The notes under the pieces were generated by a model, which worked only from the letters and a program-made list of their open reading frames with translations, was not told the origin of the DNA and did not search any database. Below, piece by piece: positions 1,450-39,540 of a stretch of DNA of 64,000 bases (positions within the stretch are counted from its first letter, which is position 1; each line of letters opens with the position of its first letter). The position numbers and the translations under genes were made by a program. This DNA is from a phage. The stretch lies in the sequence record NC_101837.1; one strand, 5' to 3'.

Positions 1450-1479
1450 CCAAATAGAAAATCCCCGCCGAAGCGGGGG
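1450..1479 (-). terminator. rho-independent terminator (stem CCCCGC/GCGGGG, UUCG loop on the transcript, U-tract)
   Basis: hairpin 1463-1478 followed on minus strand by AUUUUCUAUUU; lies just after stop of 1491..1871. Confidence 0.5.
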
Positions 1480-1881: not shown

Positions 1882-3066
1882 TTAAGCTTTAGCCAAAATG
1901 GCGCTAAACTCTTCACCAAACTCTTTTACAATCTTCATCAGGTTTGGGTATGCTTTGATCAGCTGAGCAACAATCTTGTCACGCCCTTTACCGATAAGCA
2001 AGGCATTTCCTAAGGCATTAGGTTTCATCATCGCCATAAAGACTGAGAATACAAAATCTCGGTTCTCGTCCTTGAAGTTTTCCCAAAGGAAATCGAGGAA
2101 GTTTGCCACGCAGCTGACAAGATCTTCGTCTGAGATACTTGCATTTTCCATCATATTACGAATAGCGATACAACCTTCAGATCCAAGAATCCACAAAATG
2201 TCTGGCTGCTTAGGACCTACGTATTCTTTGCAGCCACCTGCCATAATCCTACCGATTTCCGGTAAATTGCGTTTCTTGGTGTGGTATGTCCAGATCTCTA
2301 CCGCTGCAGTGTGACCAATAGCACCTTGCAGAAGAACACGGGCCATAGCGTCAGAAATAATACCACTGTCAAAATCGTGCAAGATGTCAGATGCAGCAAC
2401 CCAAGATCGTGGTGTGGCAAAAGATGGACAATTAATCTCAGCCATAGCCTCATAATTATCAATAGCTGATGGAACTCTTTTCAGATACCCAATTACAGAG
2501 GAGTGAACCCCGTTGAGGAATGCGTAGTCCTCAATAAACACCTCTGCATTGCTTGTAACCTCTACAATGATAAAACGGTTAGCCAGAGGGGCTTCGAGCG
2601 CCGAAAGAACCGCACCATCTGTAGAACGGTTACCCGCAGCCACAAAAACAGAACCCTTAGGGAATGCATAGGTGCCGCACTTGTGGTCAAGCATAATTTG
2701 CATTGCAACCTTTTGCAGGTAGTTATCTGCATGAGTGAGCTCATCCAGAAAGATAATTCCGCTCCAGTCAGGATCCGCAGGCCAAAATTCTGGAATTGCA
2801 AACACTGTACGTGTAGTTCCATCCGCTTCTACAGGGATAGGTAGCCCAGATAAGTCGGCAGGATCTTTATCTGACAGTCGCACGTCAACAAGGTTGTCAT
2901 CTCGCTCACCGAACATATTATCAGCGATCTGCTTCATCACCTGGCTTTTACCCACACCCATTGGTCCCAAAATTAGGACAGATCGGCTATGACGTTGGGC
3001 AAACTGAATGATAGCTGGCAACTCACGGACAGTGATTTGACCACTTTCAAATACGTTTCTTGACAT
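1882..3066 (-). CDS. MoxR-like AAA+ ATPase (CobS/RavA-type)
   Basis: 394 aa; Walker A LILGPMGVGKS, Walker B IIFLDELTHA, sensor AAGNRS; start overlaps stop of upstream gene. Confidence 0.65.
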   Translation of the reverse strand: MSRNVFESGQITVRELPAIIQFAQRHSRSVLILGPMGVGKSQVMKQIADNMFGERDDNLVDVRLSDKDPADLSGLPIPVEADGTTRTVFAIPEFWPADPDWSGIIFLDELTHADNYLQKVAMQIMLDHKCGTYAFPKGSVFVAAGNRSTDGAVLSALEAPLANRFIIVEVTSNAEVFIEDYAFLNGVHSSVIGYLKRVPSAIDNYEAMAEINCPSFATPRSWVAASDILHDFDSGIISDAMARVLLQGAIGHTAAVEIWTYHTKKRNLPEIGRIMAGGCKEYVGPKQPDILWILGSEGCIAIRNMMENASISDEDLVSCVANFLDFLWENFKDENRDFVFSVFMAMMKPNALGNALLIGKGRDKIVAQLIKAYPNLMKIVKEFGEEFSAILAKA

Positions 3067-4392: not shown

Positions 4393-4663
4393 TTGTCATT
4401 TTACATTCTTGAAATTTTAACACAAGACGGTGATTGTGTCTAGTGTCTAAAAAGATTTTTTCAACCATCAGGCACACGGTATAACCGTCCATCTTGTTAA
4501 CAACAAAATCTCCAGGGTGAGGGAGGATGTCTCCAGGGTTGGGGAAACATAGTCCACTCAGAAAGGCATCGTCAGTGGTGGACTTAATAGATTTCCACAC
4601 ACTGTCTGCCTGAACATGTTCACCGACGTAATATACATTACCACATGCCTTCATCATAGTCAA
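4385..4663 (-). CDS. hypothetical protein
   Basis: 92-aa ORF, overlapping neighbours by a few nt. Confidence 0.4.
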   Translation of the reverse strand: MTMMKACGNVYYVGEHVQADSVWKSIKSTTDDAFLSGLCFPNPGDILPHPGDFVVNKMDGYTVCLMVEKIFLDTRHNHRLVLKFQECKMTIA

Positions 4664-5559
4664 ATCCCCGCATAAATTAAACTTGTATCAGTATACTTCT
4701 TTAATGGGTAAATATCCTGTCCATAGATGCAGTCATTAAACACCTCATCTACCCAAAGGCTACACTTATATCCCATCATTTCTAAAACACCCATCTCTTC
4801 TTCGGTAAACTTATCACCGCTCTTGCAAGATGTCAATACCTCATTCTGTACTCTTGCTACCTCGAAGCGGTTATTGGCAATATCGCTATTGGCGATCAAA
4901 TACTCACCTAAAGGGTGTGCGGCATTAAAGATGCACAGTGGGCGGTTGACGTAATAGTCTCCAGGTGTATAAAAATTATTGAGGTCTTTCACTAGAACAT
5001 TCTTATCAGTCACTTCATTTATAACATCATGCATATCGCACATCTTTATATGTTTGAGGATTCCATCCCCCATCACAAAATAAAAACTTGCTGAGGCACT
5101 TTCGGCATAGATCTTACTAGATCCGTTGTAGTTGTATTTTACTCGGATGCTAACGGGGGTTTTTCCTGTCGCGTTAGCCATCATCCAAAGAAATGGCAGC
5201 TCATACTTCTCCTCTGAGGAAACAAAAGGTGAGGTAGCCAGAGATCGAAAACCTCCAGAGAAGTTGAAAGTTACAGAACCGCTCCGGCGGTATGATACCG
5301 CGTATTCTACTTTTATATCGACGTACCCGTTGGAATAGGTGTGTCCTTCATTATCTAAATATGTCCACTTATCAGACCCAGATACCAATCTACGCTCAAT
5401 AACCTTCATCACTACAGGAATTAGTGGGTTGGTACAAACCGCTTTTGAAGTAGCTTTATCATCTAAAGCCTCGTAAATTGCAGAAAGGATGTCCCCAGCT
5501 GAAAGATTGGTTGTTATGTCCTGTTTCCACCGCGTACTAAAACTGTTAAGATTTGCCAT
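4660..5559 (-). CDS. hypothetical protein (first gene of minus-strand early operon)
   Basis: 299-aa ORF; AGGAG upstream of ATG; immediately downstream of a sigma70-like promoter. Confidence 0.45.
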   Translation of the reverse strand: MANLNSFSTRWKQDITTNLSAGDILSAIYEALDDKATSKAVCTNPLIPVVMKVIERRLVSGSDKWTYLDNEGHTYSNGYVDIKVEYAVSYRRSGSVTFNFSGGFRSLATSPFVSSEEKYELPFLWMMANATGKTPVSIRVKYNYNGSSKIYAESASASFYFVMGDGILKHIKMCDMHDVINEVTDKNVLVKDLNNFYTPGDYYVNRPLCIFNAAHPLGEYLIANSDIANNRFEVARVQNEVLTSCKSGDKFTEEEMGVLEMMGYKCSLWVDEVFNDCIYGQDIYPLKKYTDTSLIYAGI

Positions 5560-5599
5560 AAGTAAGTGCTCCTATGTTAGTTTTCTTTCGAATGGGTGC

Positions 5600-5628
5600 A
5601 CTATATTGTGGAGTTAGAGTAAAGTCAA
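5600..5628 (-). promoter_or_regulatory. sigma70-like promoter (TTGACT-17-TATAGT) for minus-strand operon
   Basis: -35 at 5623-5628 and -10 at 5600-5605 read on minus strand, 17-bp spacer. Confidence 0.45.
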
Positions 5629-5641
5629 CACGTTTTTGATG

Positions 5642-5670
5642 TTGACATCTGTTGAGACAATTGATACGAT
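5642..5670 (+). promoter_or_regulatory. sigma70-like promoter (TTGACA-17-TACGAT), divergent from the minus-strand promoter
   Basis: -35 5642-5647, -10 5665-5670; the two -35 hexamers form an inverted repeat GTCAACA-N9-TGTTGAC (5624-5646). Confidence 0.4.
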
Positions 5671-5701
5671 TTCTTCACTTACAGAGCACGAGAGACGACT
5701 C

Positions 5702-6679
5702 ATGAATCTTGAAAAATATTATACACCAGAAGAGTTAGAGCGCTTGCTCAAAAAATATAGACGCAAACAGAATAACGCACGGAAACGAGATATAGAGTTC
5801 GACCTGTCATGGGAAGAATACCTCCTATTTGGTAAAAAACTTTTAGGGGAGGGGGTATGCGACTACACCCTTATACCTTTCGACATGCACACAGATGAAA
5901 ACGGACTGGGAAATCCTTTCTACCCATCTCTGGAGCGGATAGATGATGAAGGTCCTTACGCAATTGATAATTGTTGTGTGGTAGGGTTGAGGTGCAATGC
6001 TCTGAAAGACTGTCTGGTAGATAAAAAGACTGCAATCCTGATTAAAGACAAAACTGATCGAAAAATTGTCCAGCAGATGATGCTCCACCTGAGCGAAGAG
6101 CGTATGGAGAAATTGAAAGGTGATTATACTTTTGAAGATTTCATCTTGCAATACGGGACAGAAGAAGATAAACTAGCACTATTTGACGAAGAGGAGGAAG
6201 ATATGTCACCAATGCAGGACTTTAAAAATTTCATGGCTGATCGTGCAGCCAACAAACACATTTCAGACATCGTAAACGAGACTGTGGCAGAAGAAATTGA
6301 AGAACAGAACTCTGAAGAGGAAAAAGATCCTCAGGAGGTCGAAGAGGAGATTGCAGAAGAAGTTCCTGCACTGCCTGATGATGTTGAGATTGCTAAGGCT
6401 TACACTTTCTATTGTCAAACGTTCTACGATGCAGGTATGAAAGTTGATCTGTCGTTCAGCCAATTTAAGAGTTCGTATATTCGCAAATGCTGTGCTTTAA
6501 CTGGTGAACGTCTCGGAGCTGGACTTAAACCCCTGTTGGTGACCGACTGGAATAAAGGTTTCACTAAAGGAAACTTTATGGTAGTATCTCCAATTATGGA
6601 GAAAGCTATGACAGATCTTATGAAGACCACCCGCATGACAATGACCGAGTTGGCAGGTATTTTCAAACACGTTAAATAA
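5702..6679 (+). CDS. hypothetical protein with two repeated HNH_3-like modules and an acidic linker
   Basis: ORF track 5636..6679 begins at a TTG inside the promoter; first ATG after the promoter is 5702; repeated segments CDYTLIPFD...SLERIDDEGPYAIDNCCVVGLRCNALK and CALTGERL...LLVTDWNKGFTKGN; Glu/Asp-rich linker. Confidence 0.4.
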   Translation: MNLEKYYTPEELERLLKKYRRKQNNARKRDIEFDLSWEEYLLFGKKLLGEGVCDYTLIPFDMHTDENGLGNPFYPSLERIDDEGPYAIDNCCVVGLRCNALKDCLVDKKTAILIKDKTDRKIVQQMMLHLSEERMEKLKGDYTFEDFILQYGTEEDKLALFDEEEEDMSPMQDFKNFMADRAANKHISDIVNETVAEEIEEQNSEEEKDPQEVEEEIAEEVPALPDDVEIAKAYTFYCQTFYDAGMKVDLSFSQFKSSYIRKCCALTGERLGAGLKPLLVTDWNKGFTKGNFMVVSPIMEKAMTDLMKTTRMTMTELAGIFKHVK

Positions 6680-6712
6680 TGACAGGGGCCAATGGCCCCT
6701 TCTGGAGTTTTA

Positions 6713-8173
6713 ATGGATAGCAGAAGTTCAGAAATCATTGCCTCACAGAAAGATGATGCCCTGAGAATGTTGCAGGCTGCACGTATGTATCTCCTTGAAA
6801 AGCTGCCGTTTTATGGCACACTGCTGTCAGGGTTGCAGTTCGTAGAAAACCACACATGGTGCTCCACCATGGCAACCGACCATAAACGCATTTATTACAG
6901 CCCTGAGTTCATTATGGGATTGGCTGATGAACGCAAGGCTATTCTTAAGGCTTCTCTAACTGACGAGCAGTTTGAGATGGCTGAAGTTTTCTATTCCCCA
7001 AAATCTGTGAAAGAGGTGGCCTTCCTTCTGTCACATGAGGTGGGGCATATTATCTGTGATCACCTGGTCCGTGGTAAAAGCTTTGAGCCGGAACTGTTCA
7101 ATATTGCTTGTGATCACGTTATCAACACAGGTCTTGTGGTTGACTTTAGCAAGCCTCCTTGTGTTTTCTTCCCGAAGGGGAAAAGCACTACGTTCGTGAA
7201 AGGCAAGCCTTTTGGCTTCTTAGCTAACTGCTACTGCGACATGAAGTTTCATGGATGGATTGCTGAGAACGTCTATGCAGTTCTTGATAAGCAAAGAGAT
7301 CAGAATAACGGTAAAAGTAAGAGCGGTAAAGGTGAGAACTCTCAAGGAGATAAGCGACAAACCGATGATCACATGAGTGGGAACGGTGGCACCAGTGATG
7401 ATCTTGGAAAGGCTATGGGGTATGATCAGCCACAACCTGTAATCAGCCAATCTGATAAAGATCAGGCCATGCAGGACTCTGGTGACATGCTTGAGGCAGC
7501 AATGCAAGCTTCCGGAGGTCGTTGCCCTGAGGCGGTTCGTGAGTTTGTCAAGAATAGAGGTAAGCCTGTAATCAATTATATAGACATCATCAAGCAGCGT
7601 ATGTTGTCTAAAAGAAAGGCCGAACTGACCTACAGAAAACCTGGTCGCCGATCTGGGTCTTTGACCAGCACAATGCGAAAAGTCGGAGCTATAAACAAGA
7701 ACCAGCACGTTATTGTTCCTGGTCGTAATCCGGAAAACACTATAGATATTGTGGTGGCTTTAGACGTTTCTGGCTCGATCTCTCAAAGAACTTTAAAGAA
7801 AATGTTCAATGAAATCACCGGATTGTGCAATCTGTATAAAGAATTTAAGGTTACAATGTTCTGTTGGTCAACTGAGGTTGGAGAGGTTAAAGTATACACT
7901 CGCGGCAACATAGACGAAATGATCAACTATGAGGTCCACTCAACATGGGGAACAACAGCTGCTTGCGTGTTCGAGTATCTGGATGCCAACATACCAAATG
8001 CAAAAGATGTCATCGTCCTGACCGACCTATACTTTGAGCATAACTTTGAACAAAAGGCTGTTGACAACAAGTGGAAAAAGTACGATACTTTATGGGTTCT
8101 AACCGAAGGGTATAATAAAAATTATATCCCTAGCTTTGGTAAAACTGTGGAATTAATCGAGTACGCTAAGTAA
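6713..8173 (+). CDS. von Willebrand factor A domain protein with N-terminal HExxH metallopeptidase-like domain (DUF2201/CobT-like; usual MoxR partner)
   Basis: HEVGH motif; MIDAS motif ALDVSGSIS in C-terminal half; ATG 6713 preceded by TGGAG; upstream ATG 6692 sits in loop of hairpin 6685-6699. Confidence 0.6.
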   Translation: MDSRSSEIIASQKDDALRMLQAARMYLLEKLPFYGTLLSGLQFVENHTWCSTMATDHKRIYYSPEFIMGLADERKAILKASLTDEQFEMAEVFYSPKSVKEVAFLLSHEVGHIICDHLVRGKSFEPELFNIACDHVINTGLVVDFSKPPCVFFPKGKSTTFVKGKPFGFLANCYCDMKFHGWIAENVYAVLDKQRDQNNGKSKSGKGENSQGDKRQTDDHMSGNGGTSDDLGKAMGYDQPQPVISQSDKDQAMQDSGDMLEAAMQASGGRCPEAVREFVKNRGKPVINYIDIIKQRMLSKRKAELTYRKPGRRSGSLTSTMRKVGAINKNQHVIVPGRNPENTIDIVVALDVSGSISQRTLKKMFNEITGLCNLYKEFKVTMFCWSTEVGEVKVYTRGNIDEMINYEVHSTWGTTAACVFEYLDANIPNAKDVIVLTDLYFEHNFEQKAVDNKWKKYDTLWVLTEGYNKNYIPSFGKTVELIEYAK

Positions 8174-11606: not shown

Positions 11607-11711
11607 TCGATTTTAAGGCCTCAAAAGAGGCCTGTGCCTTCAATAACTCCACCCTCTCTTGTGATTACACCCACCTTTCAAAAAACTTCCCCAAAACGCT
11701 TAAAAATGTTG

Positions 11712-11741
11712 TTGACAGCACACACCCCAGTTTGCTATTCT
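11712..11741 (+). promoter_or_regulatory. sigma70-like promoter (TTGACA-18-TATTCT)
   Basis: consensus -35 at 11712-11717, -10 at 11736-11741, upstream of gene at 11776. Confidence 0.35.
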
Positions 11742-12602: not shown

Positions 12603-12633
12603 AAGAAAGGGGCCGTCTGGCCCCTTTTTATTT
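12603..12633. terminator. bidirectional rho-independent terminator between convergent transcription units
   Basis: stem GGGGCC/GGCCCC 12609-12624 flanked by A-tract on one side and TTTTTATTT on the other. Confidence 0.55.
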
Positions 12634-12641
12634 GCCTCCTG

Positions 12642-15600
12642 TTAACTAGGGAAGTTTGTATAAGCTTCGAGATGGTATTGCTGGTTACCAGGTAGCATAA
12701 CACCTATGCTTGCAACACCTAATGTTCTACCACCAGGGTTCCACTGAAACTTAAATCCAATCCAACCCGAGCTTCTGGCTGCATCAATGTTGTCACTGTA
12801 CCCAAAAGTGGCTAGACCATCAACACCTGCTCCGAAAAGCAGTTGTATCTGGTTCCTTGGTAGGCCAATAATTTCAGGTATGTAAGCACCAAAAAATGTA
12901 GGGTTGGTGGTTGTGGTCGGATTGTTCATGACCGGACCGGTAAAGACCCTCATATTGGACGTTCCTGCAGGTCTAGGGTAAGCCCCGTCAAGAGGATTTC
13001 CTTCCCAAATAAACCACTGAGGTGCCATCTGTCTGACAGTAAACGATGTTGAAGACGTTTTGCGGCCTGCATCATCTCTAACTACAAACTTTATGGTGAC
13101 ATTCCCAGTAGCTTTAAATGTTACCAGCCCTGTGGTGGCATCCACTGTTGCAATGTTGGTATTACTACTTTCCCAAGTCTTTCTAATCCCGGATACGTTG
13201 GAAGGGGTGATAGAAGGTTCCTGCATCTGCAGTTTACCGCCCACAATCCCTATGCCGTTGCCCGGATTATACAGCACACCGACCTCGTCTATAATGTTCC
13301 CTGCTTTGAGACTATACTTCCTTGAGAAGTTGTAAGTTCCGTTATAAGTGTGTGTCCCTGAGAATGTGACATCTGCCTTCCCGTAAGAGATGCAAACCAA
13401 CGCATACTTCCTGTCAGGCAACGTTTCTCCAGTCTCTGGGTGAGTTTTACCTACCTGGAACACACTCGGGTCAGTAGAGTCGTGACTATCACTAACGGAG
13501 CTTGGACCGCCCATCAACTGTGACAAACAATTCCTTACCCATGTCCAGTTATTATCGCTGGAGAAGTCCACAGTCAAATCAAACACAACCCACTCATTTG
13601 GCTTCCACACAGGTGTTGCAATGGACTTGCCTACACCGCCTCCTTGGAGTGTTGCCGACTGTTCGGTGATCAGTGCCGCATAGGCCAGAGTTCCTAAACT
13701 CAGAGTCTGGCTTGCTGTCCTCACTACCTTAGAATCAGCATCTGTGAAGTTGTTGATGATTTGGAATGTGCCATAAGTGTTTTTACAGGTAATTCTGGCG
13801 TTCAGCGTGTCAATCTTCCTCACATCTGCCATAGCAGTGTTAGACACAGAGAAGTCAGAAGCTTTAGCTGAGTTTGCCGCAACAGCAGGATCAACGTTAA
13901 GAGTTGCGTTGAACTGACAGGCAGGGGTAACCAGCAGCTTGTTATCACCTATTTGCTTCCATGAAATACTTTGGACAGGTAGATTCCATTTAATACCTGA
14001 GAAAACTTTAGCAACCCTTGGCCCCAGAGCTCCAGTTCTGTTGTCTTTACAGCACATAGACATGGTGATTGTTGACGGAGTAGCCTGTCCGAACAATTGC
14101 TGTGCTTTTGCAGAGGACATGGTGTAGAAATTGTCCTTAACAAACTCATCAGCGGCTAAAGATCCGTCAGCCCTCCACCATTGAACCTGATACCCTGTTT
14201 TGTCCCAACCACCGACCTGCTTCAGGTCTTCCCAGGAGATTTCTAGATCCCCAGTGGTAGGGTTGATTGCAGCAGCTCCTGGTGTTCCAGAGGACCATAA
14301 TGGGATATCGAACCACGCTGGTTTAGCAGACTGCACTGCACTAGGACCTATTGCAGCAGCAAGTTGCTGGCCCATCAATACACGAGCATCTTTCACCAGA
14401 CCCCACTCGATCATGGACCCGGAGTAACCTTCTTTCTTGTAGGCTGAGGATCCGTTCAAATGGATGAGTCGGCTTGTGCCAAAGTTATATGCTCCACCAC
14501 CGTTGTCGTCTGCAAAATTGTATATAACCCTATCTCTGATATCTTTCCATGCTCTACCGCCAATCTCGTAGTCATGGTCATAACATCTTTGCAATGTTGT
14601 CCAGCAAATGATCGCCATCCTTCTGCCGTCACTAAAGCCAAAGGCCTGATCGTTAAGCTCTCTCCACAAGTAGCAGTTAGTGGTCCACATAGCTCTGTGA
14701 ATGTTGAACCAATTTATAGACCTGGCTGCATTGTTGTAGGCGGTGCCTTCTAGCGTAGGCCACACTGCATTAACCAGCATGTCCTCTGTCCCTGCGTCTA
14801 TCAGGAATCCTCTCACTTTCTTACCCATTCCTACCCTATCCTTGGCAATCCATGAGCCGAACAATTTCAGTTTAGGACCGATTACGGCATCCTCTGGATG
14901 CTCAAGAGAGACATACTTCAAGTATACTGTAGGATCACCGTAGGTGCCATCACAAACAGCTTTGTGCATGTTTTCACCAAGGTCCAGACGGATACCTGTG
15001 AGAGTTTTGGTATCATCTGTGAACTTATCTGTCAAATCAAACTCGTACCACCACCACCCGGCTCCAAGTAAAACTTTCTTACAGCGCTTAGAGTCTGTGT
15101 CGGAGATTCTTTTATCTCCCGCATATGGTGAGTCTGCAAACTGGTAGTGCAGAGCAACTTCAAAAGGATGTGTGGATGTTCCGTTTTCTGCAAGAACTTG
15201 CTTTCCGATCAGATCGCATTTAATAATCATCACGACACGTCTGTACCCATTGGCAACTGGAACGTCGAACGGATACCTTGCACCATCCATATTCGCATGC
15301 AAAGCTGCGAAATTTATGTATGGGTCAACAGCGTTACCTAAAGTTTCAGGCCCTGGGATCATCTTGTACTTCTTGACCTGTCCCATGATATAGTCGCTGC
15401 CGTAGGTTGCAGCCTCGAAGCAAGAACCGCTGTCAGGCAGTTCAGCAGGCCCCCAAAAGTATGCCCCGTAACAATTATAGAACCACTTGTTAGGGTCATA
15501 GTTATTCTTGAAGGTCTGAACCTCGTTTGCCTGTTTTGTCAAGAAAACCTGAGTATCTGTAAAGATTGCAGGATTTACCCTTGCCTGACGCGGAGGGTAA

Positions 15601-18269
15601 CCTGTAGTTTGGTTAAACCACAGATTGCAAGAGTAATCCCTCATATAGTCATAATCAGAGTATTTGTTTACATCTTCGTTCCAACACATGTTCAGGTTGG
15701 TACCGCCCATGCATACAATATATTCTGCGACATACTTATCACTTCTGGTAGGAATACCTATGAACCATCTGTTAACAGGCTCATCCCAAGCTGTGCGCTC
15801 ATCTTTAACGCAGATAGCAATCCAGTCATGTGTTCCTGTTTTCTTGCACACATCTCGCTTCATACCATAGTAGAACTCTTTAGTATTCGGCTCAGGTGCA
15901 TTTATCAGGTAACTCCATGCCTGATTTGCATAAGTCCCATTGGTGCGCGGATCATGATCAAAGGCATACATGATGATCCTTTCCCCACCAAGATGTTCGC
16001 CAAGAGTAACTTTGACATTCACATCGCCGTAACCGTTGCGAACAACATCCATATTGTCAATAGAGATGCCTCTAGGAGTGTAGGCAATTTTCAGTGAGTT
16101 ATTCTCATTAGCGCCACCAAGAGTGACCCCTATGTTGTTTGTTGTCCCGTCGGCATATCTTACTGTGGCTTCCCAGCGTATTCCGAAATATCCTGCATCA
16201 TGACTAACAATTTTCAGTGTACGAGCACCAGAGTTAGGTTTTCCAGGATCAGGCCAAGGATCTGGATGTTCATGGACAGTCAACGATGTTCCGTTTTGCT
16301 CGTTGACCTGCAACATTTTACCGCCTCTGCCGTTAGGGTTGAACTCCCACAAGGCTTGTGTTTTCACAACATTGTCATACGTAGTACGTCTCTGATCGTA
16401 GATCTCTTGAGTCACATCGTAGGTTACAGACCCGGCATCCATTCTACAGAGTCGTACCATATACGATGTATCGCCTTCTACAGCAGGTTGAGCTGCGTTA
16501 AGCCCGAAGTATACAGTATCGTTGACATGGAACTGTTTGTTTCTACCGACAGTATGCCACTTGCCGTTGGACGGATACGCAGGAACTATGGTGTTCCAGT
16601 TCAAAGTTCTTGTCGTATGGGTTCTGCCTGTGCCATGCTTGTCATGATAGGTTATTTTTACAGAGTACAGGCCACGTCTGTTAACATTTCTGTTATACTG
16701 GGTAACAACAACTTCGTTGGCCCCACCGTGGTTCCAGTTGGTGGAGAATTGGTAATTTGCATCTGTAACAACCGTACCTGCAGCATTTACCAACTCAATC
16801 TTGTCAATAATGAACGTAGCCCCCTCTGGCTGAGGCTTCAATTTCATCTTGACCGTGTCACCAATGTAGATATTGCTAACACTACTAACACCATTAACGT
16901 CGAAAATATCATCAACGCCCCAACTGTCTACTGGGACATTTTTATACCAATTCTCAGGAACCTCTGTGAACCCCTGACTATTAAGTCTGCCGCCAAACAG
17001 GTTATTAGAGCCTGCAAAACTTCCCCTTGGGATGCCTGACCACCAAAGTTTGCCATTAACAACAGTAAAGGTCCCTAAGAAACCTTCTCTGTGGATACCC
17101 TGGAAATAAACACTTTCTGTCCAGCTTACTGGCATCCGTTGCTCGACGTATTTAGCCGTAGCCAGAGCCTGATAGTGAATAAAATTAGCCCTAGGACTGT
17201 TGTTTGCAGATTGTGCACCAATATCATTGCACAGATTGCGAGAGAAGCCACGATACTGTTTGGTGCCATTATTGAAGAAAATGCCACTTGTGCCGTATCC
17301 ACGAGCCATTATCACCTCATGGGTGTAGGTGATATTTAAGGAACGCCATGTGTCATCTCCCCAGACGTCTTGCCCGTAGAATACGTTAACAAGCTGTTGG
17401 TCATCAGGTTTGTGCATCCTTTCTGTGGCTATAATTGCACCATTAGGTCCACACATGAACCCTTTCCATGTCTCGCCCACCGGGATGCCTTTAAACTGGT
17501 CAAGAGTCACATGCTCGGCTGGATAAACTAGTGTGTTTTTGCTGTTATTTCTTAAGAAATCGTAACCTGCAATCCAGAATCCGTTAGGACCACCAAAAAT
17601 AACCGAGTTGTCATGAACTTCACAATTAATTCTTGGATTTTTCCAAGGACCTGTCTCTGGACTTTCAGATGTTTCACCGATCTTAACTGGAGTAGCGTGT
17701 TGACTTTTGTCAACATGAAGAGAGCCGTAAGTATTATTGCCAGAGCCGTACAGGTGAAGCATACCATCAGCCTCTGGTGCAGCAATTACCCACACTGTAT
17801 TGTTTACGCCACCCATTACTTCAACAAGTCTCTCAGGATGGGTGTCCAAATGCAACCCTGTTACGATCTGTTCCGGCAAAGGTGTCCACTCTCTGACACA
17901 AACATCGTTTCCACCTGCTGCCTCCGATCCGATAAGACCAGCTGTGCAACCAATATAGAAAAATTTATTATCGAATGTGCGGATTACAAATGCACGGTCA
18001 GCTCTCCAAACATGGTCTACGTTCCAAGCTGCCTCATTAGGATAGTTTATTGTATCAAGATCTCCAGTCCGACACTCTCCGAACCTATTATAGCCAGTAA
18101 TATTAAGCTGACCATCATCAAAAAGTATAGCTAAGCTATTTACATAGGATACTGTGTTGCTTGTACCATCACTGTTGTCTATTGGGTATGACAGAACAGC
18201 AAGTTCCTTAATTCCACCCCTCTTATCGAGGAAATGACGACCAAGTTTTAGCAAAGGGATTGGAAGCAT
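12642..18269 (-). CDS. giant tail fibre/tailspike-like structural protein (1875 aa)
   Basis: single uninterrupted ORF at distal end of tail-fibre block; Gly/Asn/Trp/Thr-rich composition typical of beta-rich fibre proteins; no catalytic motif confirmed. Confidence 0.45.
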   Translation of the reverse strand: MLPIPLLKLGRHFLDKRGGIKELAVLSYPIDNSDGTSNTVSYVNSLAILFDDGQLNITGYNRFGECRTGDLDTINYPNEAAWNVDHVWRADRAFVIRTFDNKFFYIGCTAGLIGSEAAGGNDVCVREWTPLPEQIVTGLHLDTHPERLVEVMGGVNNTVWVIAAPEADGMLHLYGSGNNTYGSLHVDKSQHATPVKIGETSESPETGPWKNPRINCEVHDNSVIFGGPNGFWIAGYDFLRNNSKNTLVYPAEHVTLDQFKGIPVGETWKGFMCGPNGAIIATERMHKPDDQQLVNVFYGQDVWGDDTWRSLNITYTHEVIMARGYGTSGIFFNNGTKQYRGFSRNLCNDIGAQSANNSPRANFIHYQALATAKYVEQRMPVSWTESVYFQGIHREGFLGTFTVVNGKLWWSGIPRGSFAGSNNLFGGRLNSQGFTEVPENWYKNVPVDSWGVDDIFDVNGVSSVSNIYIGDTVKMKLKPQPEGATFIIDKIELVNAAGTVVTDANYQFSTNWNHGGANEVVVTQYNRNVNRRGLYSVKITYHDKHGTGRTHTTRTLNWNTIVPAYPSNGKWHTVGRNKQFHVNDTVYFGLNAAQPAVEGDTSYMVRLCRMDAGSVTYDVTQEIYDQRRTTYDNVVKTQALWEFNPNGRGGKMLQVNEQNGTSLTVHEHPDPWPDPGKPNSGARTLKIVSHDAGYFGIRWEATVRYADGTTNNIGVTLGGANENNSLKIAYTPRGISIDNMDVVRNGYGDVNVKVTLGEHLGGERIIMYAFDHDPRTNGTYANQAWSYLINAPEPNTKEFYYGMKRDVCKKTGTHDWIAICVKDERTAWDEPVNRWFIGIPTRSDKYVAEYIVCMGGTNLNMCWNEDVNKYSDYDYMRDYSCNLWFNQTTGYPPRQARVNPAIFTDTQVFLTKQANEVQTFKNNYDPNKWFYNCYGAYFWGPAELPDSGSCFEAATYGSDYIMGQVKKYKMIPGPETLGNAVDPYINFAALHANMDGARYPFDVPVANGYRRVVMIIKCDLIGKQVLAENGTSTHPFEVALHYQFADSPYAGDKRISDTDSKRCKKVLLGAGWWWYEFDLTDKFTDDTKTLTGIRLDLGENMHKAVCDGTYGDPTVYLKYVSLEHPEDAVIGPKLKLFGSWIAKDRVGMGKKVRGFLIDAGTEDMLVNAVWPTLEGTAYNNAARSINWFNIHRAMWTTNCYLWRELNDQAFGFSDGRRMAIICWTTLQRCYDHDYEIGGRAWKDIRDRVIYNFADDNGGGAYNFGTSRLIHLNGSSAYKKEGYSGSMIEWGLVKDARVLMGQQLAAAIGPSAVQSAKPAWFDIPLWSSGTPGAAAINPTTGDLEISWEDLKQVGGWDKTGYQVQWWRADGSLAADEFVKDNFYTMSSAKAQQLFGQATPSTITMSMCCKDNRTGALGPRVAKVFSGIKWNLPVQSISWKQIGDNKLLVTPACQFNATLNVDPAVAANSAKASDFSVSNTAMADVRKIDTLNARITCKNTYGTFQIINNFTDADSKVVRTASQTLSLGTLAYAALITEQSATLQGGGVGKSIATPVWKPNEWVVFDLTVDFSSDNNWTWVRNCLSQLMGGPSSVSDSHDSTDPSVFQVGKTHPETGETLPDRKYALVCISYGKADVTFSGTHTYNGTYNFSRKYSLKAGNIIDEVGVLYNPGNGIGIVGGKLQMQEPSITPSNVSGIRKTWESSNTNIATVDATTGLVTFKATGNVTIKFVVRDDAGRKTSSTSFTVRQMAPQWFIWEGNPLDGAYPRPAGTSNMRVFTGPVMNNPTTTTNPTFFGAYIPEIIGLPRNQIQLLFGAGVDGLATFGYSDNIDAARSSGWIGFKFQWNPGGRTLGVASIGVMLPGNQQYHLEAYTNFPS

Positions 18270-36942: not shown

Positions 36943-39540
36943 TTAAAGGTACAATCCACGGTATTGAGCATAAAGGCCCAGACCGCGAAGGATTTCGCCA
37001 GAGTGATAGCCCACCGGATCAGAAACTGCCCAGCAGCCGTTTAAAACATTATCCCCATTGATGAAGTGGTGCTTTTGCAGTAGCTTCATACAGGCTTCTA
37101 CAACAATGTCTATTTGAGGTATTGTCTCTGAATACCCGCACAGACCTAGCCAGCAGCAACCTGCAAGCCATTCACCTACCACCCACATCCTGTCCCCTCT
37201 GTCTTGATAAGAATATCCCCCAGAGGTGTTAAAGTCTGTAGGCAGATTTCCTGAATGAGATGACTGGAATCTGTTGAGGAACCATGCCCATTTCTGGCAG
37301 AACAGGAATAATCTTTCATCAACAGGTTCTTTATGTTTCTTGAGCTCATAGATTGTGCGGCACGCAGCAACAAAAGATCTTGACTGGAGCTTAGAGTTAT
37401 CTACCATCTCCCACCAACCAGTCAGCCCTTCATTACCTCTCTGCCATACATAACGCGAGGCAACTGGACCCTCTGTCTTAAATGTATTATTATACCAGAC
37501 TTGAGCGTCATACAGAAAGCCTATTGTATTTGACAATCTATGGCGATCTATGTTTTCTGCACCCATGCAGTATACTGCTGGGTATTGCATGCCAGGGTAG
37601 GGCCAATTTGGCTTTTCCTCTAAGAGATAGTTTTCCTTATCTATCACCTTTCCGGCAGGGAACACACCTGGTGTGTGCCTGTATGCACCTTGCTTGTAGT
37701 TTCTGACATAGCAATCACCAACCTTAGCGGTTGATTCTGTCTTGCTTGCCATCCATACGCTAAACCATATTAGATAAGCATCCCTATCTGCAATATAGAA
37801 CTGCGGCAGCGTGTTTACGCAGTACAGATCAAACAAGCCATTACCTATCTGCCTGTCGCTTAGGCTGAAATCTACAGAGGTGAGCCCCTTAGGATTAGCA
37901 AAGAAAGGTTTAATCTCTTCTTCTGTGTGATGAGGTTGTGTCGGATCTAGTTTGAAATCTCCTAGAGTAAGAGTTTCTGTTATCCATTGTCCATTAGTGG
38001 CATATAGATCAGCATACCATAACCACCTATCTTTGTCAAGAAATTTGACCCTTACCATCTCATCATCTGATCGATAAGTTACTGAGTTTAAAGAAATCTC
38101 TCTCCCAAAATTGAAAGTTACTTTACCTCTTGCTATATTACAACGGGTGAAGTTGTCAGAGTGGTTGTAAATGTCGGTATCATACTGCATACTAACACTA
38201 GCGCCACCGCTTACGACAATGTTTTCCTCTTTAGGTAAGAGATACGGATTACCGTCTTTACCAACTACCTCTACGAAATCAGTGACCTTGGCAACTATTT
38301 CTGTTACCTCTGCCCCTCCAAAAGGAACCCCTATCCTGTACTGTTTTTTGTTATTGTTGCCATCATTAAGGATGAAATGTGGCTGGAACAGAACCCCTTC
38401 TCCTCCGAAATTCATAACAATTTCAGCATCTCTGCCTATTTTGTATGTAGTCCCTTTTTGAATTATTTCGCAAGGCTGGCGTGCGTTCATTCTAAAATTG
38501 ATATACCCGTCACTGTCCCTGCTCATGGCAGGAACTGTTCCTGCAACAAGGCAAGTACCATCTGTAAACGGTGCCTTAATCAACGTGGTCTTCCTAAACA
38601 GTTTGTCGTAGGCGTTTATATCACTGAAATTAAGCAATTTGTTGTAAGACTGTTTAAACGCGGTGTAATACTTTTCCTCACCTGTCAAGGTGTAGAGTTG
38701 ATAACAAGCGTCACACCACATTTCTTCCCCGTCCAACTCTGGGGCCTGATTATCTGCAACCACGTTTATAGGATTTACAATTACAGGGGATCCTGCAGGT
38801 ATCACCGATCCGCCCTGCTCTTGAGGTAATCTTACACAATAGGTCACCTTGTGGCTGCCTGTAACACCCTTATCTTGTAATTGGATTGTGCCGAACTCTA
38901 CAGACGTATGACCACTGTCGGCTATGCTACCGTTAGCCCAATAGCGGTTACCATCCCATGCTATGTACCACTCAACCCACCAACTTAATCCGGATGTTGT
39001 CCAATCTGGGTTAGCATCTGTGCCACCGTAAACATCAGAGTCTACAGTGTTTCTTCCTAACACACCGTTATACGCTTGGAATGCCTTGTCAAGGTATTCT
39101 CCCCATGTCGGAGATCCAGCTGGGATTTTTCCTCTACCGTTGGTAAAAGACACCACCACATCTTTAAACCCACCATGTGATGGAACCCCATCTGTGGATA
39201 GGGGGTAGTGGGACAATCTTTGCATTTTACTTTCTACTGCATATGCACCCAGAAGATGGCTATTGTAAGCTTCCCAAGCATCTTTTGCCCTACCCAGATA
39301 GAAATCGCTTTTCGATGCCCTGTATGCTTCAATGTATCCCAGAATCAACACAGCTTGGGACTCATGCATTGCCCAATCATTATTTATCTTATCACCTGCC
39401 CACCCTGCAGCTATAAGACCATCAGGGTTTACTAGCTTATTTTGTGTAGGGGTGTTGGTAATACCTGTGTTGTTATCGAGGCACTTCCTGTGCCCCTCAA
39501 TCATCTGAAATACGTTATCAATGTTATGTTGAATACGCAT
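36943..39540 (-). CDS. large tailspike-like protein (865 aa), possible carbohydrate-active domain
   Basis: Trp/Tyr/Gly-rich ORF directly downstream of an anchor-domain gene; enzymatic role is conjecture. Confidence 0.35.
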   Translation of the reverse strand: MRIQHNIDNVFQMIEGHRKCLDNNTGITNTPTQNKLVNPDGLIAAGWAGDKINNDWAMHESQAVLILGYIEAYRASKSDFYLGRAKDAWEAYNSHLLGAYAVESKMQRLSHYPLSTDGVPSHGGFKDVVVSFTNGRGKIPAGSPTWGEYLDKAFQAYNGVLGRNTVDSDVYGGTDANPDWTTSGLSWWVEWYIAWDGNRYWANGSIADSGHTSVEFGTIQLQDKGVTGSHKVTYCVRLPQEQGGSVIPAGSPVIVNPINVVADNQAPELDGEEMWCDACYQLYTLTGEEKYYTAFKQSYNKLLNFSDINAYDKLFRKTTLIKAPFTDGTCLVAGTVPAMSRDSDGYINFRMNARQPCEIIQKGTTYKIGRDAEIVMNFGGEGVLFQPHFILNDGNNNKKQYRIGVPFGGAEVTEIVAKVTDFVEVVGKDGNPYLLPKEENIVVSGGASVSMQYDTDIYNHSDNFTRCNIARGKVTFNFGREISLNSVTYRSDDEMVRVKFLDKDRWLWYADLYATNGQWITETLTLGDFKLDPTQPHHTEEEIKPFFANPKGLTSVDFSLSDRQIGNGLFDLYCVNTLPQFYIADRDAYLIWFSVWMASKTESTAKVGDCYVRNYKQGAYRHTPGVFPAGKVIDKENYLLEEKPNWPYPGMQYPAVYCMGAENIDRHRLSNTIGFLYDAQVWYNNTFKTEGPVASRYVWQRGNEGLTGWWEMVDNSKLQSRSFVAACRTIYELKKHKEPVDERLFLFCQKWAWFLNRFQSSHSGNLPTDFNTSGGYSYQDRGDRMWVVGEWLAGCCWLGLCGYSETIPQIDIVVEACMKLLQKHHFINGDNVLNGCWAVSDPVGYHSGEILRGLGLYAQYRGLYL

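Follow-up and report, generated by a model that had tools for sequence, protein, structure and literature searches.

Back-to-back sigma70-type promoters in the spacer separating gene 10 from gene 11 of an rV5-like coliphage, and the inverted repeat that their -35 boxes most probably generate

A short spacer between two diverging phage genes carries two consensus-like promoters whose -35 boxes fall into the two arms of one inverted repeat, and this arrangement raises the question of what the repeat is for. The initial annotation had read it as a switch region, in which a single dimeric regulator could bind the repeat and control two early operons at once. We analysed the whole stretch of 64,000 nucleotides of sequence record NC_101837.1 (referred to as the window) and asked whether the promoters are real, what the repeat is made of and what is conserved in related phages. 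The 2.2 kb around the promoter pair share 97-99% identity with many E. coli myoviruses of the rV5-like genus Vequintavirus and match 117 phage records at 80-99% identity, and judged by its sequence the window is a Vequintavirus, i.e. an rV5-like coliphage.

The features that delimit the two gene clusters are as follows:

1463-1478, minus strand: terminator-like hairpin CCCCGCTTCGGCGGGG with a T-run, equal to t003 in rV5 Table S4
1882-3066, minus strand: MoxR-like ATPase gene, within the minus-strand cluster
4660-5559, minus strand: gene 10 (rV5 numbering), 299 aa, first gene of the minus-strand unit
5702-6679, plus strand: gene 11 (rV5 numbering), 325 aa, leading gene of the plus-strand unit, Srd-like and HNH-like in its N-terminal domain
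12606-12627, unstranded: terminator-like hairpin AAAGGGGCC-AGAC-GGCCCCTTT at a convergent junction, listed by the terminator scan on the minus strand

The spacer between genes 10 and 11 (5560-5701, 142 bp) is the only divergent gene junction of the window. The hairpin at 1463-1478 probably ends the unit that starts from the minus-strand promoter P010 and includes the MoxR-like ATPase gene. The hairpin at 12606-12627, which corresponds to the rV5 bidirectional terminator pair t026 (plus) and t027 (minus), is the probable end of the plus-strand cluster; beyond it minus-strand genes resume, the next gene lying at 12642-18269. These clusters match the layout of the rV5 transcription units, given as 10-1-238-164, 11-26 and 27-81 (Kropinski et al. 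2013, Virol J 10:76). Gene 10 is annotated as a putative alpha 1-3 fucosyltransferase and matches phrog_12338, a family of unknown function. For gene 11, the PHROG matches comprise phrog_3118 at 8e-111, with a full-length match to an 'HNH endonuclease' PHROG, and weaker matches to the PHROGs 'decoy of host sigma70' (1.5e-12) and 'Srd anti-sigma factor' (3.8e-9).

To describe conservation, we used an alignment of 21 sequences that consisted of the window, 16 further Vequintavirus sequences picked along an identity ladder from 100% to 80% over a 79-bp core, and four IMG/VR contigs in which the gene 11 product is 63-66% identical. The elements of the minus-strand promoter P010 and the plus-strand promoter P011 are listed here with their conservation in this alignment:

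5593, minus strand: predicted transcription start of P010, an A, 7 nt past the -10, from the sequence and standard sigma70 geometry
5600-5605, minus strand: -10 hexamer TATAGT of P010, identical in 17 of 17 Vequintavirus sequences and listed in rV5 Table S4
5623-5628, minus strand: -35 hexamer TTGACT of P010, invariant in 21 of 21 aligned relatives
5633-5637, minus strand: A5 tract, reading T5 on the plus strand and covering about -44 to -40 relative to P010, with TTTT (four of the five positions) invariant in 21 of 21
5642-5647, plus strand: -35 hexamer TTGACA of P011, invariant in 21 of 21 and annotated in GenBank DQ832317 as 'Sigma70-type promoter; P11'
5662-5670, plus strand: extended -10 of P011, with TG at 5662-5663, one base and TACGAT at 5665-5670, also given as an extended -10 in rV5 Table S4
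5677, plus strand: predicted transcription start of P011, an A, 7 nt past the -10, from the sequence

Two promoters, TTGACT-17-TATAGT on the minus strand and TTGACA-17-TACGAT on the plus strand, had initially been described as lying back to back, and every element of this description is exact. Both promoters score 10 of 12 consensus matches with a 17-bp spacer, and P011 additionally has the extended -10 TG. In the group at 65% identity the -10 of P010 reads TATTCT and retains the T-A...T skeleton; at P011 none of the 21 sequences departs from the TG or from the T-A...T positions, and position 5667 is C or A. Counted from the predicted starts, the P010 leader would be about 34 nt long and contain the Shine-Dalgarno sequence AGGAG ahead of the ATG at 5559 (minus), and the P011 leader would extend for about 25 nt before the ATG at 5702 (plus). 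The two -35 hexamers are separated by 13 bp and the predicted starts by about 84 bp. The promoters do not overlap; the UP-element zone of either promoter overlaps the -35 box of the other.

The promoter pair is already known and was published for rV5. Both P010 and P011 are found in rV5 Table S4, and the paper places bidirectional promoters between gene 10 and gene 11 (Kropinski et al. 2013, Virol J 10:76); the table gives P010 (minus) as CAAAAACGTG-TTGACT...TATAGT and P011 (plus) as TTGACA...TGATACGAT. The rV5 promoters occupy the same locus in a 95%-identical core and have hexamers identical to those of the window, from which rV5 differs by a few bases in the P010 spacer, and the promoters are predictions in both phages. 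The record of phage Gotham contains both P010 and P011 as PhagePromoter predictions, and the homologous plus-strand promoter is annotated in the PVP-SE1 record. The inverted repeat is not mentioned in the rV5 paper or in the DQ832317, Gotham and PVP-SE1 records. In a literature search, we found no transcript mapping, RNA-seq or mapped starts for Vequintavirus or Vequintavirinae, and we infer from the sequence the start sites (about 5593 on the minus and 5677 on the plus strand), the activity and strength of the promoters, their early timing and their use by an unmodified host holoenzyme.

Consensus scans give many false positives, and the two promoters might be chance matches without promoter activity: first-order Markov simulations produced 16.7 ± 4.0 sites with at least 10 of 12 matches per 64 kb. 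The window contains 38 such sites. Back-to-back divergent pairs of them (at least 10 of 12 matches, gap of at most 40 bp) are expected only 0.055 times per 64 kb, yet one is present, and this single pair coincides exactly with the single divergent gene junction of the window. The conservation pattern likewise speaks against chance. Among the 21 sequences, 21 of the 26 promoter-determinant positions are invariant compared to 26 of the 116 other spacer positions (Fisher p = 4e-8), and for the 17 Vequintavirus sequences only the corresponding counts are 25 of 26 and 67 of 116 (p = 6e-5). The columns without variation are AAGTCAA, which is the -35 of the minus strand with one further base, TTGACA, which is the -35 of the plus strand, the T-A...T skeletons of both -10 hexamers, the TG of the extended -10 and a TTTT that lies between the two -35 boxes.

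Because the promoter-determinant positions are selectively conserved, and this in relatives down to 63-66% protein identity, we have strong, if indirect, evidence of function, and chance matches are an extremely unlikely explanation. P010 and P011 are very probably real sigma70 promoters. The notion of two divergently firing promoters is supported, as it agrees with where the promoters lie and how they are oriented, with the lengths of their leaders and with the finding that precisely the determinants are selectively conserved. The same conservation may also be compatible with a factor that recognises the -35 hexamers themselves. Both spacers between -35 and -10 vary freely, as promoter spacers do, which argues against any operator overlapping them.

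The repeat that connects the two promoters is present exactly as initially described:

5624-5646, unstranded: inverted repeat GTCAACA-N9-TGTTGAC, with arms at 5624-5630 and 5640-5646

The TTGAC cores of the two -35 hexamers, at 5624-5628 in the left arm (P010) and at 5642-5646 in the right arm (P011), make up five of the seven pairs in the repeat, and the other two pairs are the TG that precedes each core. Because pairs 1 to 5 are TTGAC cores on opposite strands, they are symmetric automatically. The TG adds little to this, as it precedes 15.6% of all TTGAC sites in the window and 8 of the 26 published rV5 promoters (p = 4e-4 against the TG dinucleotide frequency and p = 0.04 against the 15.6% rate), and the chance of finding it at both promoters is about 2-10%. 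In total, five matches to GTCAA-N3-25-TTGAC occur in the window compared to 1.9 expected; the only other match with a short gap lies at 38035-38049, inside an 865-aa gene, and an operator family thus finds no support in these matches.

Within the 21 sequences, symmetry is kept in all 21 at the five pairs inside the hexamers, in 18 at the sixth pair and in 7 at the seventh. The three losses at the sixth pair are one-sided changes, as is every departure at the seventh (A-G, G-G or A-A), and none of the 21 sequences has a compensatory change at either pair; in most Vequintavirus relatives P011 carries GG instead of TG. Of the 21 sequences, 19 have 13 bp between the -35 boxes and two have 14 bp. 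Both 14-bp gaps are T-homopolymer differences in metagenome assemblies. The centres of the palindrome arms are 16 bp or 1.52 helical turns apart, which places half-sites on opposite faces of the helix.

These results bear directly on the proposal that the two operons are switched together by one dimeric regulator, of the phage or the host, which binds to both arms and occludes both -35 boxes. The two -35 hexamers are indeed overlapped by a perfect inverted repeat of 7 bp, and its dyad centre at 5635 corresponds to position -42 of both promoters, such that any protein bound there would affect both. However, the pattern at the sixth and seventh pairs is not that of a maintained dyad, the distance between the -35 boxes is 13, 14 or 3-4 bp among relatives, and promoters with consensus -35 boxes do not need an activator. 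Half-sites about 1.5 turns apart are atypical for a simple dimeric helix-turn-helix operator. The dyad does not appear to fit the consensus sites of the host regulators CRP, FNR, LexA and TyrR. No second copy of the palindrome is present in a regulatory position within the 64-kb window, and a Pfam search for a regulator or DNA-binding domain in genes 10 and 11 gave zero matches of any kind.

The anti-sigma-like annotation of gene 11, the first gene of the plus-strand unit, could also be brought forward for a regulatory role of the repeat, but it indicates only a presumed manipulation of host transcription. According to the account of Qi et al. 2015 cited in PMC7430671, T4 Srd stimulates RNase E without an action on sigma. 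Because T4 Srd acts via RNase E and not via sigma, the 'anti-sigma' label lends a transcriptional switch little support. We therefore consider binding of one dimeric regulator to both arms very unlikely, and the designation of the palindrome as its operator or as a switch is not supported, given that symmetry is conserved only inside the -35 hexamers and given the 1.5-turn spacing. Of the claim that both operons are under shared control, one part holds, as divergent promoters do point into the MoxR-containing and the plus-strand clusters, but a shared operator is unsupported.

The lambdoid OR region, with PR and PRM and the proteins cI and Cro, resembles the locus in having divergent promoters with overlapping upstream regions, an analogy implicit in the initial annotation. 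In lambda the operators number three, are conserved and 17 bp long and have half-sites spaced by one helical turn, and it is the adjacent repressor genes that are transcribed, whereas the present locus has a single dyad whose conservation stops at the -35 boxes, a 1.5-turn spacing and no repressor gene, in a virulent phage. Because any pair of back-to-back promoters with such -35 boxes yields GTCAA...TTGAC automatically, the inverted repeat is not evidence of an operator. In our assessment, the palindrome is in all likelihood a geometric by-product of two (TG)TTGAC modules on opposite strands and not a separate protein-binding site.

The (TG)TTGAC module has a counterpart in the sister genus Certrevirus, for which the early-promoter consensus AAAA(N3-4)TGTTGAC(N17-19)TATAAT was defined (Buttimer et al. 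2020, PMC7344957). P010 is a full match to this consensus, with AAAA-ACG-TGTTGAC, 16 nt and TATAGT (equivalent to a hexamer spacer of 17 nt), and the consensus accounts for the 7-bp arm as well as for the A-tract in the loop of the palindrome; two further sites in the early region of the window match it too. P011 differs from it in part: TGTTGAC and the -10 agree with the consensus, but because the A-tract belongs to the opposite strand, P011 has a T-tract in its place. A search of the window for AAAA-N2-4-TGTTGAC returned three distinct sites compared to 0.25 expected:

5624-5637, minus strand: AAAA-N2-4-TGTTGAC site of P010
8052-8065, plus strand: AAAA-N2-4-TGTTGAC site
11702-11716, plus strand: AAAA-N2-4-TGTTGAC site

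All three sites are in the early region, are co-oriented with the genes and have a -10-like hexamer at 17-18 bp, and the published rV5 promoters are A-rich at -45 to -39. Because the left arm together with the A5 tract fits a module found at three sites, arm and loop together are a single copy of a promoter module that recurs and has an UP-like A-tract, and the A5 tract at 5633-5637 is likely the proximal UP-element-like part of this Vequintavirinae early-promoter module, AAAA-N3-TGTTGAC. Within the window, TG precedes 6 of 25 TTGAC sites that have a -10 and 23 of 161 that do not (p = 0.24, not significant). Because TG is thus not specific to promoters in the window, the claim that it belongs to the module rests on the published rV5 and Certrevirus promoter lists and on the AAAA-N-TGTTGAC count. 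Over the window as a whole, the 7-mer TGTTGAC is in excess (29 occurrences compared to 11.9 expected), mostly outside promoter contexts.

An inverted repeat might also act as a nucleic-acid structure, that is, as a hairpin, a terminator or a cruciform, and the terminator scan indeed lists this repeat on the minus strand, giving it a stem of eight pairs, one of them G-T, followed by TTTACTCTAA. However, the repeat lies upstream of both predicted starts, which is why it is not expected in either transcript; from neither side does a gene point into it, no more than 3 pairs of the stem are G-C and the T-run is poor. As single-stranded DNA, the hairpin folds with -5.4 kcal/mol (z = -1.8), a value matched by 12 of 200 shuffled sequences, and the interval 5300-6000 has no Rfam match even at E <= 1. 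For a cruciform, arms of 7 bp around a 9-nt loop are unfavourable. On the grounds of the weak fold and the position upstream of both units, the hairpin or terminator reading was rejected, and the chance that the repeat works through a nucleic-acid structure of any kind is close to nil.

More distant relatives indicate which part of the arrangement has persisted. In Seunavirus, Mydovirus, Avunavirus, Henunavirus and unclassified relatives, the same divergent junction is marked by gene 11 homologues with about 40% identity. On the plus strand, all of them have a strong promoter, TTGACA-16/17-GATAAT, CATAAT or GATACT; on the minus strand, they have a weaker promoter whose -35 box abuts that of the plus strand and whose T-A...T -10 follows at 16-17 bp. 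The abutting boxes read as follows:

PVP-SE1, GAP31 and Ro1: AATCAA-GTG-TTGACA, gap of 3 bp
KNP2 group: AATCAA-GGG-TTGACA, gap of 3 bp
Av-05 and TH18: AGTCAA-CGC/CAC-TTGACA, gap of 3 bp
pEp_SNUABM_01: AATCAA-GTGG-TTGACA, gap of 4 bp
L035: CTTCAA-GGGG-TTGACA, gap of 4 bp
L036: AAGCAA-GTGG-TTGACA, gap of 4 bp

In these phages the symmetry is imperfect and only as good as the weaker -35 box. A similar arrangement, TTTCAA-GTG-TTGACA, is found at the second divergent junction of rV5, between genes 81 and 82 just past the window, where P081 is TTGAAA-17-TATACT on the minus strand and the plus strand has an unlisted candidate, TTGACA-17-CAGGAT, given as preceded by TGG. Acinetobacter phage ABPH49 and Aeromonas phage phiA009 have just the plus-strand promoter, and their upstream gene lies on the same strand. 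Judged from these sequences, what is conserved is the abutting -35/-35 design and not a dyad sequence.

This conserved design suggests a further possibility, namely that the two polymerases are coupled: holoenzymes 74-84 bp apart would compete, cooperate or stimulate each other through the supercoiling caused by divergent transcription, and the gap would keep them in helical phase. Abutting -35 boxes occur in every Vequintavirinae genus sampled and again at the second divergent junction of rV5; the observed gaps are only 3, 4, 13 or 14 bp, two classes that are about one helical turn apart; and each UP-element zone overlaps the -35 box of the other promoter. On the other hand, these gaps may represent perhaps one 10-bp indel and a few 1-bp changes, and thus have almost no statistical weight, with both 14-bp gaps going back to the homopolymer differences in metagenome assemblies noted above. 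Compact phage genomes, moreover, place divergent promoters close together anyway. Overall, we regard polymerase-polymerase coupling as unlikely.

Less probable still is the proposition that the abutting -35 boxes are a selected device, either for coupling holoenzymes on a fixed helical face or for one phage factor to shut off both operons. If this were true, the coupling would amount to a co-recruitment of polymerases or to a mutual exclusion that balances the two early operons, and the phage factor would target sigma region 4 or the -35 box.

The explanation that we favour is that the spacer between genes 10 and 11 carries two ordinary promoters of the host sigma70-RNA polymerase, placed back to back, and we hold this to be highly likely. 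P010 would drive genes 10 to 3, including the MoxR-like ATPase gene, up to the terminator at 1463-1478, and P011 would drive the Srd-like gene 11 and the plus-strand cluster in the direction of the terminator found at 12606-12627. The A5/T5 tract in the 'loop' of the palindrome would serve as the UP-like A-tract of P010. Most likely, both promoters are constitutive and dependent on host sigma70, and they would fire divergently upon entry of the DNA into the cell.

Such a pair belongs to a type that is not new. A class of back-to-back divergent promoters was reportedly described by Beck and Warren in 1988, and the locus agrees with this class in having non-overlapping promoters on opposite strands, a shared upstream region, starts tens of bp apart and a separate gene cluster for each promoter. 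It differs from the class in that the -35 boxes nearly abut (13 bp here, 3-4 bp in other genera) and that no regulator site lies between them.

The significance of these results is small beyond a correct annotation of the locus. Where an inverted repeat spans two -35 boxes that lie back to back, it is no ground for assuming an operator. What the comparison adds is evidence, absent from the 2013 paper, that rV5-type phages use a single short spacer, and in it presumably unmodified host sigma70 promoters, to start two divergent and probably early transcription units.

Upstream of gene 11 (5702-6679, plus strand), at 5636-5701 on the same strand, an ATG at 5639-5641 arises from T5640, the base that also makes the seventh pair of the palindrome GTCAACA-N9-TGTTGAC (5624-5646). 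This ATG is in the frame of gene 11, with no stop codon before that gene, and two GenBank records (vB_EcoM_10C2_SA_NWU and rV5_ev147) begin gene 11 there. We rejected it as the start codon: it falls within the -35 region, upstream of the predicted transcription start, and is replaced by GAGG or CAGG in 10 of the 21 aligned sequences. Because the upstream ATG is missing from these sequences and ATGAATCTTGAAAA at 5702 is unchanged in all 17 Vequintavirus sequences, sequence comparison places the real start of gene 11 at 5702.

Records differ in what they call gene 11: some give 'anti-sigma factor', others 'anti-termination protein' or 'HNH endonuclease'. The N-terminal 100 residues of its product match endonuclease VII/HNH-like PHROGs as well as those for Srd/'decoy of sigma70'. 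Anti-sigma function is a putative label for this product; the experimental role of T4 Srd, as related in PMC7430671 from Qi et al. 2015, is that of an RNase E stimulator. Gene 10 (4660-5559, minus strand) is widely annotated as 'putative alpha 1-3 fucosyltransferase', a name that stems from weak similarity reported in the rV5 entry. A Pfam search with the gene 10 product gave no match, its PHROG is one of unknown function, and 'thymidylate kinase' is annotated at this position in Seunavirus and Mydovirus.

We compared the gap between the two -35 elements (5629-5641) with that upstream of gene 11 homologues in sequences from relatives (L008-L012, L014 and L025-L037). Vequintavirus shares a gap of 13-14 bp with a group at 65% identity; in Seunavirus, Mydovirus, Avunavirus and Henunavirus the gap spans 3-4 bp. 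The two classes differ by approximately 10 bp, or one helical turn, with the T5/A5 tract sitting in the extra length, and the independent events are too few for this difference to be called phasing. A similar arrangement is found at a further site in rV5:

L055 431-468 (rV5 DQ832317 66730-66767), outside the window: second divergent junction of rV5, genes 81/82

Here, TTTCAA-GTG-TTGACA forms an abutting -35 design like that of genes 10/11. On the plus strand of this junction, the candidate promoter P082 reads TTGACA-17-CAGGAT, with a TGG before the -10 element that makes it an extended -10; the rV5 paper (Kropinski et al. 2013) anticipated this promoter, yet it is missing from the list given there.

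The 7-mer TGTTGAC occurs 29 times in the window against 11.9 +/- 3.3 expected, a 2.4-fold over-representation. At most of these sites no -10-like hexamer follows the 7-mer, and 8 of the 29 are oriented opposite to the genes. Promoters alone do not account for this excess, and codon or dipeptide bias may lie behind it.

The closest match to the window (98.9%) is MG065646, one of 16 GenBank MG0656xx records that are named 'Campylobacter phage' and carry no annotation; those checked are flagged UNVERIFIED. Across the genes 10/11 region these records share 90-99% identity with E. coli Vequintavirus genomes, and they are probably contaminants or have mis-assigned hosts.

Three further features of the window are:

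12606-12627: hairpin AAAGGGGCC-AGAC-GGCCCCTTT, 9 pairs, T-runs on both flanks
1882-3066, minus strand: MoxR-like AAA+ ATPase, minus arm
6692-8173, plus strand: protein with DUF2201_N (putative metallopeptidase) and VWA-like DUF2201 domains, plus arm, second gene after the predicted promoter P011

The hairpin, the counterpart of the rV5 pair t026 and t027, separates the plus-strand early cluster from a 1875-aa minus-strand gene at a convergent junction. In several GenBank records the VWA protein goes under the name 'anti-sigma factor' or 'HNH endonuclease', a labelling that looks wrong. Because VWA proteins are the usual partners of MoxR ATPases, the two may form a two-component system that is divided between two operons and co-expressed from the divergent promoter pair.
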